A stretch of DNA of 64,000 bases from Trueperaceae bacterium. Lineage in GTDB: Bacteria; Deinococcota; Deinococci; Deinococcales; Trueperaceae. This document shows positions 1-33,600 of this stretch, one piece after another. The stretch spans positions 3,008,001 through 3,072,000 of the forward strand of contig OZ243913.1 of the NCBI GenBank assembly GCA_965213705.1, given 5' to 3'. The position numbers and the translations under genes were made by a program. Below the pieces are notes generated by a model. The model saw only the letters and a program-made list of their open reading frames with translations. It was not told the DNA's origin and did no database searches. How positions within the stretch are numbered: position 1 is the first letter of the stretch; each line of letters begins with the position of its first letter.

Positions 1-39
1 GGCACGTTCGAAGAGGGCTCGAGAGGTCGTTACGTTCAT
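1..39 (-). CDS. 5' end of a gene running off the window; N-terminus MNVTTSRALFERA resembles glutamate-1-semialdehyde 2,1-aminomutase (HemL)
   Basis: Minus-strand ATG at 39-37 opens a frame to the window edge. S-x-x-LF-x-x-A is the typical HemL N-terminus, but only 13 codons are visible. Confidence 0.4.
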   Translation of the reverse strand, partial: MNVTTSRALFERA

Positions 40-123
40 GGGTTCATGCTCGCACGTCCGGGAAAATCTAACAACGGTCTGCCTTACGGGAAAGCCCAAT
101 TCGGGTCTGTCGTTGCTGACAAT

Positions 124-157
124 CGACAGTGTACTTTTCAAGTGACGTACACTGTCG
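124..157. promoter_or_regulatory. 11-bp perfect inverted repeat carrying a TACACT -10-like box on each strand
   Basis: CGACAGTGTAC (124-134) and GTACACTGTCG (147-157) with a 12-nt spacer; TACACT at 148-153 (+) and 133-128 (-). Confidence 0.55.
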
Positions 158-161
158 GAGG

Positions 162-545
162 ATGTCCAAAGACTTCGATGGCTGGAACGAGCTTAAGAAA
201 CAACTTGACGCTCTGCCCCGTGCGCCTCGCTTCAGCGAACGGCAAGTATGGTGGTGCTCGATAGGTGTTAACGTAGGGCACGAGCAAGACGGCAAAAATG
301 AGTTTTATAACCGTCCGGTGGTGGTTTTGCGCAAGTTCAACCGGCAGTTGTTTCTCGGGCTTCCTCTATCTACTCGCGGCCCCGGCCCCTACCGTCACCC
401 ATTTACTTTCAAAAATCGGACTCAATACGCGCTCCTATCCCACCTGCGCCTTTACGACGCGCGGCGCTTTCAAAGTCGCCTGGGCGAACTGCCCGAAGAC
501 ACTTTCGATGAACTCAAAAAGGTTGTGAGAGAGCTTCTAAAGTAA
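162..545 (+). CDS. PemK/MazF-family toxin (endoribonuclease fold), no adjacent protein antitoxin
   Basis: MSKDFDGWNELKK...ERQVWWCSIGVNVGHEQDGK...RPVVVL...LPLST motifs. ATG at 162 lies 8 nt after TACACT; the ORF-track start at 129 looks too long. Confidence 0.85.
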   Translation: MSKDFDGWNELKKQLDALPRAPRFSERQVWWCSIGVNVGHEQDGKNEFYNRPVVVLRKFNRQLFLGLPLSTRGPGPYRHPFTFKNRTQYALLSHLRLYDARRFQSRLGELPEDTFDELKKVVRELLK

Positions 546-590
546 TCGACCCCGGATACTCCGGGGTCGTCGCGGCTAACGCCGATTTGT
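541..590 (-). ncRNA. candidate ~50-nt twin-hairpin small RNA convergent to the PemK toxin
   Basis: Hairpins CGGC-TAAC-GCCG (573-584) and CGACCCCGGA-TAC-TCCGGGGTCG (547-569), directly downstream of a minus-strand promoter. Confidence 0.5.
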
Positions 591-596
591 AGTTAC

Positions 597-624
597 AGTT
601 TAGCTCACTAGAGACTTTTGTCAA
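597..624 (-). promoter_or_regulatory. sigma70-type promoter TTGACA-N16-TAAACT pointing back at the toxin gene
   Basis: -35 TTGACA is the reverse complement of 619-624; -10 TAAACT is the reverse complement of 597-602. Confidence 0.6.
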
Positions 625-763
625 GTCGGCATGGCAACATAGTCGCACGTAAAACAGGTGAATTGCCTCTTTAACCACCTTAGTCGGGCAAAGCCGCTCG
701 AGGGCGGACAAGCGTAGCGCGGCTCCTCAAACCTGTTCAAAGCCCGACAGAGTAAGCTGAGGC

Positions 764-1663
764 ATGGAAACCATTCACTTTTTGCAGAGTTTTGCATCGC
801 CCGGTTTGAACGAGCTTATGCTGGCAATTACAAACCTCGGCTCAGAGCGGGCTTACATCGTGCTGCTGCTCATCGCTTATTTGGGCGTAGACGCTCGAGC
901 CGGGCGTTTTCTGGCGGTGGCGCTCTTAACGAGCTTTTACCTCAACTTTTTGCTCAAGGGAATCGTCGACACGCCGCGGCCTTACGTGCTCGAGCCTAGC
1001 GTGAGTTTGGGCGAGGCATACACAGCGACCGGCACCGGGCCGGGCTTTCCGAGCGGCCACGCGCAGGCGAGCACGACGTTTTGGGGTCTGGCCGCCCTTT
1101 ACGCGCGACGGAGTTGGTTTTGGGCGCTGGCGGTCGTCGTCGTCGTTTTGATTTCGCTGAGCCGCGTGTATTTGGGCTTGCACTTGCCCATCGACATCGT
1201 CGGCGGCGTGCTCATCGGCGGCGTCTTCGTGCTGCTGGCTTTTGCGCTGTTCCGGGGTCTCGAGACGCGCCGGGTGTCACCGTTCTTGACCGTCCTCCTC
1301 GGGGTTTTGGTGCCGCTGGCAGTTCACCTGCTGGTACCCTTGACCGCGCCCCAGCTCAGTTTCGCCGAGTCCGACCTGATTATGGGCGGTTTGGCGGCGT
1401 TCGTCAGCGGCCCGGCCCTGCACCCGTACCGCGCGCCGCGGGCGCTGTGGCGGCGGGTGGTCGTCACGCTGCTCGGTGTCGTTTTGGTGTTCGCGTTTTT
1501 GCTCGCCTCGAGCGCGTTACTACCCGAAGAACTAAAACGAGACCCCTTCGGCGGTTTTTTCAGGTACCTCGTTTTGGGTTACGTCGGCGTCCTCCTCACC
1601 CCCTGGCTCGGGCGCTCTCTGGGCCTCACGCCGCAACACGCGACCCCGGATGCGACGCCTTAA
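764..1663 (+). CDS. PAP2-family membrane phosphatase
   Basis: K-x6-RP, FPSGH and SRVYLGLH motifs; multiple TM helices. Confidence 0.9.
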   Translation: METIHFLQSFASPGLNELMLAITNLGSERAYIVLLLIAYLGVDARAGRFLAVALLTSFYLNFLLKGIVDTPRPYVLEPSVSLGEAYTATGTGPGFPSGHAQASTTFWGLAALYARRSWFWALAVVVVVLISLSRVYLGLHLPIDIVGGVLIGGVFVLLAFALFRGLETRRVSPFLTVLLGVLVPLAVHLLVPLTAPQLSFAESDLIMGGLAAFVSGPALHPYRAPRALWRRVVVTLLGVVLVFAFLLASSALLPEELKRDPFGGFFRYLVLGYVGVLLTPWLGRSLGLTPQHATPDATP

Positions 1664-2438
1664 ACTCACGCTCGAGTACGACGGGACGGACTTTTTCGGC
1701 TGGCAAGTCCAAGCGCGCACCGGCGAGCGGACCGTGCAGGGCGTGGTGCAAGAGGCTTGGGCGAAGCTGCCGGGCACGCACACCTCCCTGAAAGCCGCAG
1801 GCCGCACCGACGCGGGCGTTCACGCGCTGGCGATGGTGGCGCACCTGGACACCGACACGCCCGTCGAAGAAGCCGACCTGACCCGCGCCCTCAACGCGCA
1901 CCTGCCGCCCGATGTTCGCGTTTTGAACGTCGTCGGTGTAGCGCCGACGTTCGACGCGCAGTATGACTGTCGTTACCGCCGCTACCTCTACCGGTTGCGG
2001 TTCACCCAAAAAAACGCGGCAGGCGCAGCTTTGGACCGTCACCGGGTGCTGCACCTGTACCAGACCTTGGGTATTCCGGCGATGCAGCGGGCGGCGCATG
2101 ATTTCCAGGGCACGCGCGACTTCAGCGCGCTGGCGACTCAAGAAACGCGTTCGCGCGAGCGCACCGTGTACCTGTGCCGCCTCGACCACGACTCGACCGG
2201 CGACGGCCGCGACCTCACTTTGCACGTCGCGGCGGACGGTTTTCTGCGCGGCATGGTGCGCGCGGTCGTCGGCACGCTGTTAGAGGTCGGCACGGGCAGA
2301 CTAGACCCGGACGAGGTTTTAGCGGTGCTGGCTTCGAAAGACCGGGCTCGAGCCGGCAAAAATGTCCCGCCACACGGGCTGTACTTTGTCGAAGCGGGTT
2401 ATAAAGCGTGGGGGCTCGAGGACAGCTCCAAAGTTTGA
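1650..2438 (+). CDS. truA: tRNA pseudouridine(38-40) synthase
   Basis: LEYDGTDFFGWQ, AGRTDAGVHA, GFLRGMVR, PPHGLY. Confidence 0.96.
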   Translation: MRRLKLTLEYDGTDFFGWQVQARTGERTVQGVVQEAWAKLPGTHTSLKAAGRTDAGVHALAMVAHLDTDTPVEEADLTRALNAHLPPDVRVLNVVGVAPTFDAQYDCRYRRYLYRLRFTQKNAAGAALDRHRVLHLYQTLGIPAMQRAAHDFQGTRDFSALATQETRSRERTVYLCRLDHDSTGDGRDLTLHVAADGFLRGMVRAVVGTLLEVGTGRLDPDEVLAVLASKDRARAGKNVPPHGLYFVEAGYKAWGLEDSSKV

Positions 2439-2509
2439 GCCGCTTTTAACTCGGTGCTTTCGTAACCAACTTCCCACCCCCTCTTCTCACAAAATGCGAT
2501 ACTAGCGCG

Positions 2510-2989
2510 ATGTCCAGCCACTTCGAAGAAGGCAAAGCCGTGATGGTCGACGTGTCCGCCAAGGCGGAGACGGTGCGGCAGGCGGTCGCCGAGGCGGTCG
2601 TGAACTTGCCGGAGGCAGCGTTGCGCGCTTTGCAAGCGGGCAGCGCGAAGGGCGACGCCGTGGCAGTCGCCGAACTCGCCGGAATTATGGCGGCGAAGCG
2701 AACCGCCGAAATCATCCCGCTGTGCCACCCGCTGCCGCTGAGCAAAGTGAGCGTGCGCGGGACCGTGCAACCCGAGCAAAACAGCGTGCGCTTCGAAGCG
2801 CTCTGCAAAACGACCGCCAAAACCGGCGTCGAGATGGAGGCCTTGACCGCGGCCATGGTCGCCGCGCTGACGCTCTACGACATGCTCAAAAGCGTCAGCA
2901 AGGGCATCGTTATCGAGCAGGTAAGGTTACTCAGCAAAGAGGGGGGCAAGTCCGGGCCGTGGCAGAGCGAACCCACGCCAGACCCCTAA
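2510..2989 (+). CDS. moaC: cyclic pyranopterin monophosphate synthase
   Basis: [39 protein letters not shown]. Confidence 0.96.
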
Positions 2990-3408
2990 CGCCCGACGAC
3001 GAGGCGGCGCTAGCTCCCATCGACGTGGCTTACGCCGCCAGGGTCAGCTTAGAGCCCGTCCTGAGCCGGGGCAGCGTGTCGTTTTACGCGCGCAGCGACC
3101 ACTCGTTCGTGGCCGTGCGCGCTGGCGACGTAACCGGCTTCGCCGTGGCGAGTGCCGTTTGGAACGGCACCCGGCCGACTGTGCAGGTGAGCCGCGTCGC
3201 GGTTGCAGAGCCTGAGGACGGGGCTTCGCTCGAGGCCCTGTTGGAGGCCGTCACCAAAAGCGCCTACGACGCCGCCGTTTACGACATCCAAGTACAGCAC
3301 CCGCAACGAGACGACGCGGGGCGGCAGGCCCTGCAGGCCAAAAGCTACAAACCAGCAGACATCACGCTTTTTGAACGCCGCTTAGGCTCGCGCGGCGGGG
3401 AAGGATAA
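2959..3408 (+). CDS. DUF1999-like GNAT-fold protein (Deinococcota)
   Basis: [21 protein letters not shown] and [12 protein letters not shown] motifs; GTG start at 2959 inferred. Confidence 0.7.
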
Positions 3409-30643: not shown

Positions 30644-33600
30644 CAGATTGCCCCCTCTTCTGTCAAGGCCGGGTTGGGATTGGTGAGTTTAGCCAAGTAG
30701 GTCGTGCGCGGCACGGTGTTGAGTTCGGAGAGCAGCGAGAAGTTGAGGGGCGACGCCTTGAAACGTGTCACGAGACTGTTCTTGTCGCCGATGTCGCCGA
30801 AAACGATGGCTTCCGACGGGCAAGCCGACTGACACGCCGTGAAAACCTCACCGTCGCGAATACGGCGGTTCTCGTTTTCAGAGACGATGTAAGCCTGTTG
30901 AATACGCTGGGTGCAGTAGGTGCATTTTTCCATGACGCCCCGTGAGCGTACCGTCACGTCCGGGTTCATGACGAGCGACAGTTCGGTCGCGCGGCTTTCC
31001 AACTCGGCGTATTGGAGGTAGTTGAAACGGCGCACCTTGTAAGGGCAGTTGTTCGAGCAGTAGCGCGTGCCGCCGCAACGGTTGTAAACCATCACGTTCA
31101 AACCCTCGTTGTCGTGGACGGTCGCGCCGAAGGGGCACACGGGTTCGCAGGGCGCTTTTTCACAGTGCATACAAGCGACCGGTTGGATGTAATAGTCCGG
31201 ATTGTCCAGGTCACCGCCGTAATAAGTGTCGACGCGAATCCAGTGCATCGCCCGCCCGACCTCGACCTGGTCTTTGCCGACGATGGGGATGTTGTTTTCG
31301 GCTTGGCAAGCGGTCACGCAGGCGTTGCAGCCCGTACAGACGTTCATGTCAATGACCATGCCCCAGGCGTAGGTGTCGTACTCGAAGTCGGGATAGAGGT
31401 CGCTCTCGGCGTGCTCGACCGGGTGGACGAACTCGGGGTGTTCGGGGTGGTGACGGAACTCTTCTAGTGTCCCGTGCCGAACCAGGTGGCGGCGTTCGGT
31501 GGTACCGTCGTAGAGAAAATACTGCTGTGTGGTCACCAGCTTGTGGCGACCCGGCACCTTAGTCACCGCGACGTTGCCGACCCAAGGCGTGTCCGAGGTG
31601 CGCAACCGGTAAGCGTCGAAACCGACGCCGGTACCGACCTGCCCGGCAAGCTCGCGGCCAAAGCCCAAGTGAACCGTCACCGTGTTCGCAGCTTGACCGG
31701 GCAACACCCAGACCGGCGCCGTCACTTCACGCTCGCCGACGCGCAAGCTCACCAAGTTGTTGTTGGTCACGTCGAGCGCTTCGGCGGTCGCCGGCGACAA
31801 AAAGGCCGCGTTGTCCCAGGTGATTTTGGTCAGCGGCTTGGGCAGTTCTTGGAGCCAGCCGTTGTTGGCGTAGCGGCCGTCCAAGATGCTGGGGTCCAGC
31901 TGAAAGACAAGCTCGAGGCCCTCGGGGTCAGCCGTCTCCGTCGCTGCCGCCGGCAACAAGGCCAGCGTCACGTCGGCCGGGGCGGCTTCGCTGCCCGCGA
32001 CGACGCCCGAATACACGGTTTGCCGCCAAAAACTGTCGAAGTCGCCCTCGACCCGGCTTTGCCAGTAGCTCCGAACGACATCGTAACCGCTGGCGTTCAC
32101 GTCGCCGAGGAGGGCAGCGAGCAGTTCGTGCTCGGACTTGCCACCGTAAAAGGGCGAGATGAGGGGCTGCATGATGGTCGCCGTGCCGTCGAAAGCGCGC
32201 GCGTCGCTCCAGGTTTCCAGGTAGTGCGTTTTCGGTACGTGCTGACTCGCCACGGCAGACGTTTCGTCGAAGTGTTCGCTCAAGTGCAAACTGACCGGCA
32301 CCTGAGCAAGCGCCTCGGCGAAGTTCAGGTCGGCGGGCGCGGTGTAGACCGGGTTGCCGCCCACGATGACGAGCGTCTCCACGCCGCCCGCACCGATGTC
32401 GGCGACGAGTTCGCTCAGCGACCGAAAGTGGTTAGTCGGGTTGGCCTCGACCGGCTCGGTGTAGAACACCGTCTGCCCGACGTTGCCGAGCGCCGCGTTC
32501 AGCGCGTGGGCGAGCGCGTGGACCGCACCGCTCTGGTCGTCGCCCGCAATCACGAGGCTGCGGCCACGGCTGGCCTGCAAATCGCCGAGCAGGGCCGTCA
32601 GGAACGCCTCGTCGAATTCGGCTGCACCTTCGGCACCCGCGTCGGCACTCGCATCGACACCCGCGACGCCCAACGCGGCGGCGACCGCTCGAGCGAACCC
32701 CTCCAGCTGTGTGGGCGACAGCGCCAAGCGGTGGTCGGCGACCGTGCTGGTCGCGCTCGGCGTGCTTTCGACGATGTAGAGACGGTTCATGCTGTCTTCG
32801 GCGACCAGCGCGCGGCGACGCCGCGAAAAGTCCCGCTGGTAACGCAGCTTGCCCGCCCCGCGCCCGGTAAAGTCCGCGCCGAGCGACAAAACGGTGTCGG
32901 CTTTTGTAAAGTCGTAGACAGTTTGGACCGGCTGCGAAAACGCGAGTTGCGCGCCTTCGAACGCGCCGTCACTGTGCACGGGGTCGTACTGGTGCCAGCG
33001 CGCGCCCGGGTAGCGCTCGAGCAGCGCGTTCAACTGTTGCGCCAGGGTCGGCGAGGTCACCGTCTCGGTAAGCACGCGGAAGCCGCTGCCGTCCCCTTGC
33101 AAGCGGGCGCTCAAGGCGGTCGCCAAGTCTTCCCAGTTGATGTTCAGGCCGTTGTCGAGCAAGGTCTGCGAGCGGTCCGGGTCATAGAGCGACAACACGG
33201 TCGCTTGGGTCGTCGCGTCGGTCGAACCCAAACTCGCCGGGTGGTCCGGGTTGCCCTCGACCTTGGTGGGGCGGCCCATGTGGCTCTCAGCCAACAGGCC
33301 CAGCGCGTAACCGCCCTGTGTCACGGCGGTCGCGTAGAAGAGAGGTTTGCCGGGGATAATTTCTTCGGGAGCCTGGACGTACGGCACGATTTTTTCGTGC
33401 GGCTTGACCGGCCGCACGCACGAACTCAGGCCCGCCATCGCCATCGACGCACCCAGCAGTTTTAGAAAGTTACGGCGGTCGAGCGAACTCTCCAGCGGCG
33501 CCGCCTCACGCGGGAACTCTTTGTCCATAAACGCGCGGAACTCTGCGGTGTCGGCTAGGTCGTCTAAGTTTTGCCAGTAGGCTTTGCCCTGGGCACCGGC

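Follow-up and report, generated by a model that had tools for sequence, protein, structure and literature searches.

A MazF-fold gene and a conserved convergent twin-hairpin element form a mobile two-part module, very probably an RNA-antitoxin module

MazF toxins are textbook type II toxins, and databases annotate the MazF subfamily of the protein described here as type II. In type III systems the antitoxin is instead an RNA that, according to one account (PMC8167048), is encoded as a repeat array ahead of the toxin gene, shares the toxin's transcript and is cleaved by the toxin. For Campylobacter jejuni strain 81-176, papers citing Shen et al. 2016 (PMID 27291507) describe cjrA as an antisense type I antitoxin, and one of them places it on the plasmid pVir. 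Here we analyse a MazF-fold gene that lies near the start of a 64,000-nucleotide stretch of DNA, which we call the window, and that is followed by a convergent twin-hairpin element. The gene and the element form a mobile two-part module that is very probably an RNA-antitoxin module. As to its mode of action, we give a probability of about one half to the reading that a separately transcribed RNA of ~50 nt binds and inhibits the predicted nuclease dimer directly, in the manner of type III antitoxins.

The locus and its predicted products

In the host genome, the gene at 162–545 is preceded by a divergent hemL-like gene and followed by a PAP2 gene. An earlier note on this DNA had described it as a PemK/MazF-like gene with no antitoxin open reading frame (ORF), and this holds in the window and in the genome sequence upstream of it. 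The features of the locus are as follows.

91..715, no strand: inserted module, between hemL and the PAP2 gene (flank alignment with the same-genus genome G006)
162..545, plus: gene for a predicted MazF/PemK-fold endoribonuclease of 127 aa (Pfam PF02452, structure model)
597..624, minus: sigma-70-type promoter TTGACA-16-TAAACT, directed towards the toxin gene (consensus match)
541..590, minus: predicted small RNA of ~45–50 nt, comprising ACAAAU leader, P1, linker, P2 and short tail (fold; covariance-model match 539–624)
585..590, minus: single-stranded 5′ leader ACAAAU, predicted +1 at 590 (spacing from the −10 box, the same as for the mapped CJpv3 start)
573..584, minus: P1, stem of 3–4 bp with a 4-nt loop (alignments)
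547..569, minus: P2, GC-rich hairpin that varies in sequence and length and probably forms the RNA 3′ end (fold, model-fitted alignment, likeness to CJpv3)

Both flanks of the module align at 90–92% with G006, where ~190 unrelated bases take the place of window 91–715; the module was therefore either recently inserted here or lost there. Its patchy presence (7 of 61 genomes) favours a recent insertion in the host genome. A perfect 11-bp inverted repeat (124–157, arms 124–134 and 147–157) lies just 5′ of the toxin start, and the TACACT in each arm could give −10 boxes to the toxin gene and to the divergent hemL. GGAGG abuts the toxin ATG, which suggests a nearly leaderless or poorly translated mRNA, and an imperfect 18-nt inverted repeat (72%; 642–659 and 731–748) extends across the right insertion junction. 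The host genome (G000) holds 13 PF02452 matches, and in most of the 12 besides the gene at 162–545 a small ORF adjoins upstream, as judged by eye.

The product of 162–545 matches the Pfam family PemK_toxin (PF02452; E 2.4e-9, 37.8 bits against a cut-off of 23.1) and no other Pfam family; NCBIfam assigned no family and PADLOC gave no match. Its monomer model (pLDDT 94) fits B. subtilis MazF most closely (Z 13.1, rmsd 1.8, 101 residues aligned), and a single structure search returned MazF at Z 11–12.5, CptN at 10.1, ToxN at 6.2 and 5.2, and AbiQ at 5.9. Residues G39, E41, R51 and P52 align with MazF G18, E20, R25 and P26, with S70/T71 near MazF T48; across 88 sequences E41 and R51 are invariant, and G39 and P52 are conserved in at least 90%. 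For MazF-Da, PMC8634880 gives G18, E20 and R25 as essential and P26 as important. By sequence, the product is a predicted nuclease of the MazF/PemK fold with retained active-site residues, from which we infer RNA cleavage and toxicity.

The protein also has an N-terminal helix (residues 5–16, with the invariant W8 and K12) that is not in MazF, and W8, K12 and N37 are invariant residues specific to this family. A homodimer is predicted, with a score of 0.86 against 0.00 for the best control; the same mark is attained by 20 of 30 dimers of solved structure and by 1 of 23 single chains, and here it may reflect likeness to solved MazF dimers. Contacts were at least 98% alike between runs, with pLDDT 92. 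In the dimer model the extra helices contact each other, and residues 12–16 are set against the partner's 37–42 loop, which holds G39 and E41.

Beyond the gene, the elements that the earlier note had described are all present: a perfect 10-bp hairpin (547–556/560–569) one base past the toxin stop codon, a 4-bp hairpin (573–576/581–584) and a minus-strand promoter (TTGACA at 624–619, 16 nt, TAAACT at 602–597) with 10 of 12 consensus matches. This promoter is one of 2 promoter-like sites in positions 1–2000 of the window, against 0.2 expected. A 55-nt minus-strand stretch folds at −26.5 kcal/mol (z −4.9), with 0 of 200 shuffles equally stable, and 539–624 is the sole match of our covariance model in the window and in the host genome. 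Positions 1–2000 contain no tandem repeat array. Rfam 15 gave no credible match in positions 1–3000 (best E 1.1) and only tRNAs in 20 homologous loci; RF02913, the Rfam pemK motif, had no match in the host genome, and control genomes gave none either.

Conservation of the element and its coupling to the gene

We gathered 162 homologous loci, taking the best 80 of ~600 candidates per large collection plus 2 viral loci; with the window these make 163, of which 151 have 200 nt downstream and 139 remain after removal of near-copies. A minus-strand promoter with at least 9 of 12 matches lies downstream in 120 of the 139 homologues, compared with 30 on the plus strand and a shuffle mean of 25.5. Promoter, leader, P1 and P2 were all recognized by a template parse in 124 of the 139. 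A covariance model built from 14 seeds and run on 138 of these loci matched beside the gene in 120 (86/100 and 34/38), and at 0 of 10 other PemK loci of the host genome. Parse or model covers 135 of the 139 loci, and the remaining four have similar hairpins by eye. Conservation of the hairpins and reverse promoter among homologues, which the earlier note had proposed to check, is thus borne out, with stems that covary.

The stems differ in what they conserve. The outer G-C pair of P1 (90/94) and its inner C-G pair (84/88) are nearly fixed across phyla, and the middle pair swaps, with G-C in 63 sequences of the MAFFT alignment and C-G in 31; in this unfitted alignment P1 is paired in 84.8%, compared with 69.4% when shuffled. 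P2 is not alignable by MAFFT, and its covariation is taken from a model-fitted alignment and an alignment-free hairpin count. Across the 94 sequences of the model-fitted alignment, 97.6% of cells are paired, against at most 60.5% in slid controls, and all 11 pairs change on both sides, among kin that are not independent. The leader begins 6 nt past the −10 box in 97 of the 124 parsed loci (a range bounded by the parse) and carries 1.1–1.75 bits of information per position, compared with 0.02–0.25 at −4 to −2. Read as minus-strand RNA, the stem mismatches comprise 29 G-U and 4 A-C. The same reading gives 54 cUNCGg loops and, in P2, 55 GNRA loops, compared with 0 and 6 when the plus strand is read. 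The wobbles and the UUCG/GNRA loops thus favour the minus strand as that of the RNA.

The element is tightly coupled to the gene. Among 61 genomes (the host and 60 relatives), 7 carry the gene and 6 of the 7 have an RNA match, in every case adjacent and convergent; the seventh has a degenerate twin hairpin (E 0.76), and the 54 gene-less genomes gave 0 RNA matches with the top 72 candidates per genome scored. A strong family match occurs in 14 of 151 Patescibacteria genomes. There, 15 of 16 RNA matches at E < 0.01 adjoin a family gene and one stands alone, five of the 16 being in the sample's centre genome, one locus of which helped to train the model. Outside the centre genome are 21 gene loci: 18 with the RNA, 1 at a contig edge, 1 an ordinary MazEF pair, and one (L206) without the element. 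We rejected 11 further Patescibacteria matches at E 0.014–0.048 as noise, since they have no family gene nearby and are mostly promoter-only. Neither gene nor RNA was found in 100 additional Alphaproteobacteria genomes, which serve as a specificity control only.

No protein partner shows comparable coupling. The 224 neighbouring proteins fall into 190 clusters and are mostly housekeeping; an upstream ORF of 40–130 aa occurs in 24 of 123 loci, these ORFs being unrelated by eye, and Pfam found no antitoxin family among 107 larger upstream neighbours except one HTH_3. The earlier note had allowed for a cognate protein antitoxin that would overturn its proposal; none travels with the gene. Hosts named in the records belong to Deinococcota, several Patescibacteria groups, Alpha- and Gammaproteobacteria, Bacteroidota, Chloroflexota, Bdellovibrionota and Campylobacterota, at least eight phyla, and we estimate that ~880 genome and ~2800 metagenome stretches match the family patterns.

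Could the element be no more than a terminator or a mobility hairpin at the DNA level, beside a promoter that arose by chance, with a protein antitoxin acting from elsewhere? The window's P2 is rated a terminator-like site, extra copies occur beside some genes (two just upstream), a full copy (L226) lies ~7 kb from a family gene, and one gene (L189) has a small ribbon-helix-helix-like ORF upstream, by eye. Against this stand the promoter in 120 of 139 loci where 25.5 were expected, the wobble and loop counts that point to one RNA strand, the Northern detection of a homologous RNA (Dugar 2013, PMC3656092) and the 190 clusters among 224 neighbours, and we consider the explanation very unlikely. 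An integron attC or REP-like DNA hairpin was rejected on the promoter and strand evidence.

Several loci depart from the standard arrangement. Near genes, 13 extra model matches comprise three after a second paralogue, five second downstream copies, two just upstream, two after other genes and one weak match. In the two upstream cases (L027:2411–2494 and L116:2404–2492) a second promoter–RNA copy directly precedes the gene, which is thus flanked by two same-orientation copies. The element of L226 (G100:C29:21718–21800) is complete and faces an unrelated gene pair ~7 kb from another module, with no family gene adjoining; L189 (G013:C29, upstream of 42638) is the sole case of a ribbon-helix-helix-like ORF before an RNA-bearing gene. 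At L076:2501–4618 the PemK reading frame has no stop for ~700 codons, across the element and a second copy, a fusion or an assembly error. Some modules (L018, L019, L035, L042, L051, L163, L251) adjoin genes for cas3/cas1 or an NYN nuclease or directly follow a phage terminase gene, and the module of prophage CJIE4 lies between terminase and portal. L194 (G000:C1:1450794–1450985) is a truncated paralogue followed by transposase-like sequence.

The pVir relative and the mode of action

A plasmid search led to the PemK of C. jejuni 81-176 pVir (CJJ81176_pVir0047, WP_011117588), 36% identical over 102 aa. A tree of 62 proteins nests it among the RNA-bearing ones (support 97/88), and nine conventional PemK/MazF proteins lie apart (100/95). 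Dugar 2013 (PMC3656092) reports a small RNA beside it, CJpv3, on the minus strand at 31119–31043, 77 nt long and detected by Northern blot, with a start-site step height of 16164, compared with 28 for the pVir toxin gene. On those coordinates, CJpv3 starts 6 nt past the TATAAT of a convergent promoter and ends one base beyond a GC hairpin that follows the toxin stop codon. It is thus for the pVir homologue only that these data show the small RNA to be made, from a start far stronger than that of the toxin gene.

The pVir pair resembles the module in its toxin clade, its convergent small RNA after the stop codon, its promoter-to-start spacing, its lack of an annotated protein antitoxin and an AAUUGGC that precedes a stem in both RNAs. 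CJpv3 differs in its length of 77 nt, its three hairpins and the absence of a 5′ ACAAAU, and the two-hairpin model finds only its promoter (E 0.41). The pair also lies on a plasmid, whereas the two-hairpin form is mostly chromosomal and found in many phyla. A Nitratiruptor plasmid RNA has the two-hairpin form (model E 0.006), and the RNAs predicted for an H. suis plasmid and for CJIE4 have three hairpins like CJpv3 and are missed by the model. Because PemK is the only toxin–antitoxin gene among 48 annotated pVir features, cjrA is probably CJpv3, and the pVir pair is probably the published cjrA system. Its toxin is presumably the one named cjpT. The earlier note's proposal of a distinct module stands as regards a gene–RNA module, one that is family-wide and probably not unprecedented: since this same-clade PemK has probably already been shown to use an RNA antitoxin, the module is not wholly new.

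How, then, might the RNA act? If it binds the toxin, the strong convergent promoter would supply a short, stable RNA in excess, of which the A-rich single strand and the G-N-C stem of P1 would form the protein-binding face, with the leader in the substrate groove of the nuclease and P2 setting and protecting the RNA 3′ end; loss of the module or a shut-off of transcription would then free the toxin, giving addiction or abortive defence. More speculatively, transcription starting at the leader A may yield an RNA that resembles an uncleavable product. What the earlier note had suggested, an RNA-controlled PemK-fold nuclease, is supported by the coupling of RNA to gene and by the missing protein partner.

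Several lines of evidence favour binding. First, the leader and two P1 pairs are conserved across phyla and P2 varies freely, a conservation beyond what antisense control needs, because a cis-antisense RNA is complementary automatically. Second, the loops are mostly compact cUNCGg or GNRA loops, and in 112 of 124 RNAs no unpaired stretch exceeds 7 nt. Compact loops and short unpaired stretches are a poor design for kissing. Third, the hairpins lie wholly past the stop codon in 90 of 124 loci. Fourth, the toxin has the invariant W8, K12 and N37 and a helix that MazF is without, and the same fold is neutralized by RNA in CptN, ToxN and AbiQ. Fifth, the leader looks like the 3′ part of known MazF target sites, which are U^ACAAA for MazF-Da and UACAU for B. 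subtilis (PMC8634880). Sixth, the module spans at least eight phyla, compared with type I families that are comparatively narrow, a pattern weaker for newer families (PMC5367252). Finally, the RNA outlives broken toxin genes (G001, G031, G103), and the cassette occurs in operons where duplex-directed cutting would strike an essential mRNA. These operons, at L027, L067 and L012, we take to be pheS–pheT (2 loci, two phyla) and trpB–trpA, the downstream genes being named from their sequence.

The alternative is a type I mode, in which the convergent RNA pairs with the 3′ end of the toxin mRNA, the leader serving as toehold, and leads to RNase III cleavage or an expression block, aided by transcriptional interference from the opposing promoter. 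Counting for this mode and against binding, the convergent 3′ overlap is the classic layout of txpA/RatA, and the probable published member is classed as antisense type I in papers that cite it. In favour of this mode, too, the element keeps close to the stop codon, and in 34 of 124 loci it reaches into the end of the ORF. U-rich tails end only 36 of 124 RNAs and A-rich tails 45, so transcripts may run on into the ORF; a plus-strand U run follows P1 in only 12 of 124 loci, so the toxin mRNA probably covers the RNA gene. There is no canonical plus-strand terminator before the RNA gene, and weak termination signals on both strands would permit overlap. The pVir start signals of 16164 and 28 fit antisense control and protein binding alike. 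Also against binding, CJpv3 has three hairpins and is without the 5′ ACAAAU. What type I control leaves unexplained is the cross-phylum sequence conservation of leader and P1; moreover, the short overlap is tied up in stable hairpins on either strand, and the cassette is located inside essential operons. We regard this mode as possible, if rather doubtful, and antisense control and protein binding could coexist.

Binding is also weakened by two intact-looking genes without the element, L206 and, in the host genome, L192 (G000:C1:4112053–4112430, minus strand), which has neither RNA element nor upstream antitoxin ORF. These genes would suit an RNA that is a partner and not a brake, namely a preferred substrate, a decoy, an activator or a sensor; the nuclease would then be weak or inhibit itself, its extra helix lying over the active face, as the dimer model might suggest in placing residues 12–16 on the partner's loop with G39 and E41. 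However, L192 branches outside the RNA-bearing clade, as its sister, the RNA outlasts broken genes, and pVir is reported, in papers citing Shen et al. 2016, to have a working RNA antitoxin, all of which makes such a role improbable.

Returning to an RNA that binds and inhibits the toxin, we tentatively propose a more specific form, in which a single short, non-repeat RNA, transcribed separately, inhibits a MazF dimer by placing its 5′ leader in the substrate groove as an uncleavable product mimic. This would be a new, cross-phylum form of type III antitoxin, a link between protein-neutralized MazF and the repeat-RNA systems of ToxN and CptN, and would reclassify the pVir pair. The idea of the leader as a cleavage site finds no support in a test of site avoidance, because neither UACAAA nor ACAAAU is depleted in 135 toxin genes (19 against 21.4 and 37 against 34.1 expected).

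Novelty and comparison with known systems

A search of the literature outside subscription journals found no account of a wide module family. What is probably already known is a same-clade member with an RNA antitoxin, the pVir pair; new are the breadth of at least eight phyla, the two-hairpin RNA family outside Rfam and the cross-phylum conservation of the ACAAAU leader and G-N-C stem. In nearly all sampled genes an unannotated RNA gene stands in place of a protein partner. The module also accounts for the orphan MazF genes often met in Patescibacteria, where 14 of 151 sampled genomes have a strong match, and its twin-hairpin element adds a new RNA family. Should the RNA bind the protein, the module would be a third way to restrain the MazF fold and open the origin of type III systems to experiment; should it act as antisense, the module would be of type I, with an enzyme as its toxin and a breadth that is unusual.

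The module has the layout of neither the type II nor the classical type III families. Among the closest known RNAs are the Rfam pemK motif RF02913 and the DUF3800, drum and skipping-rope RNAs (Weinberg 2017, PMC5737381), and the element itself has no Rfam match. With type II MazEF and PemIK it shares the fold and catalytic residues, but it has no adjacent MazE-like gene, and its toxin has the extra N-terminal helix and forms a branch separate from the nine conventional PemK/MazF proteins.

With type III ToxIN, CptIN, TenpIN and AbiQ it shares a nuclease of MazF/Kid fold (Z 5.2–10.1) and an RNA in place of a protein antitoxin, except that here a single non-repeat RNA lies downstream under its own promoter. 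ToxN is a monomer, whereas this toxin is predicted to be dimeric and is closer to MazF (Z 12–13) than to the ToxN, CptN and TenpN families, matching PF02452 alone and nothing in PADLOC. Type III antitoxins are pseudoknotted; in the parsed RNAs no loop–tail pairing is evident by eye.

Finally, as in the type I systems txpA/RatA and bsrG/SR4, the RNA is transcribed towards the toxin 3′ end, and it can pair with the toxin transcript only if that mRNA extends beyond the stop codon, apart from the 34 of 124 loci in which it overlaps the ORF. The toxins of those systems are small membrane-type peptides, whereas here a predicted nuclease is accompanied by an RNA whose sequence is conserved across phyla.
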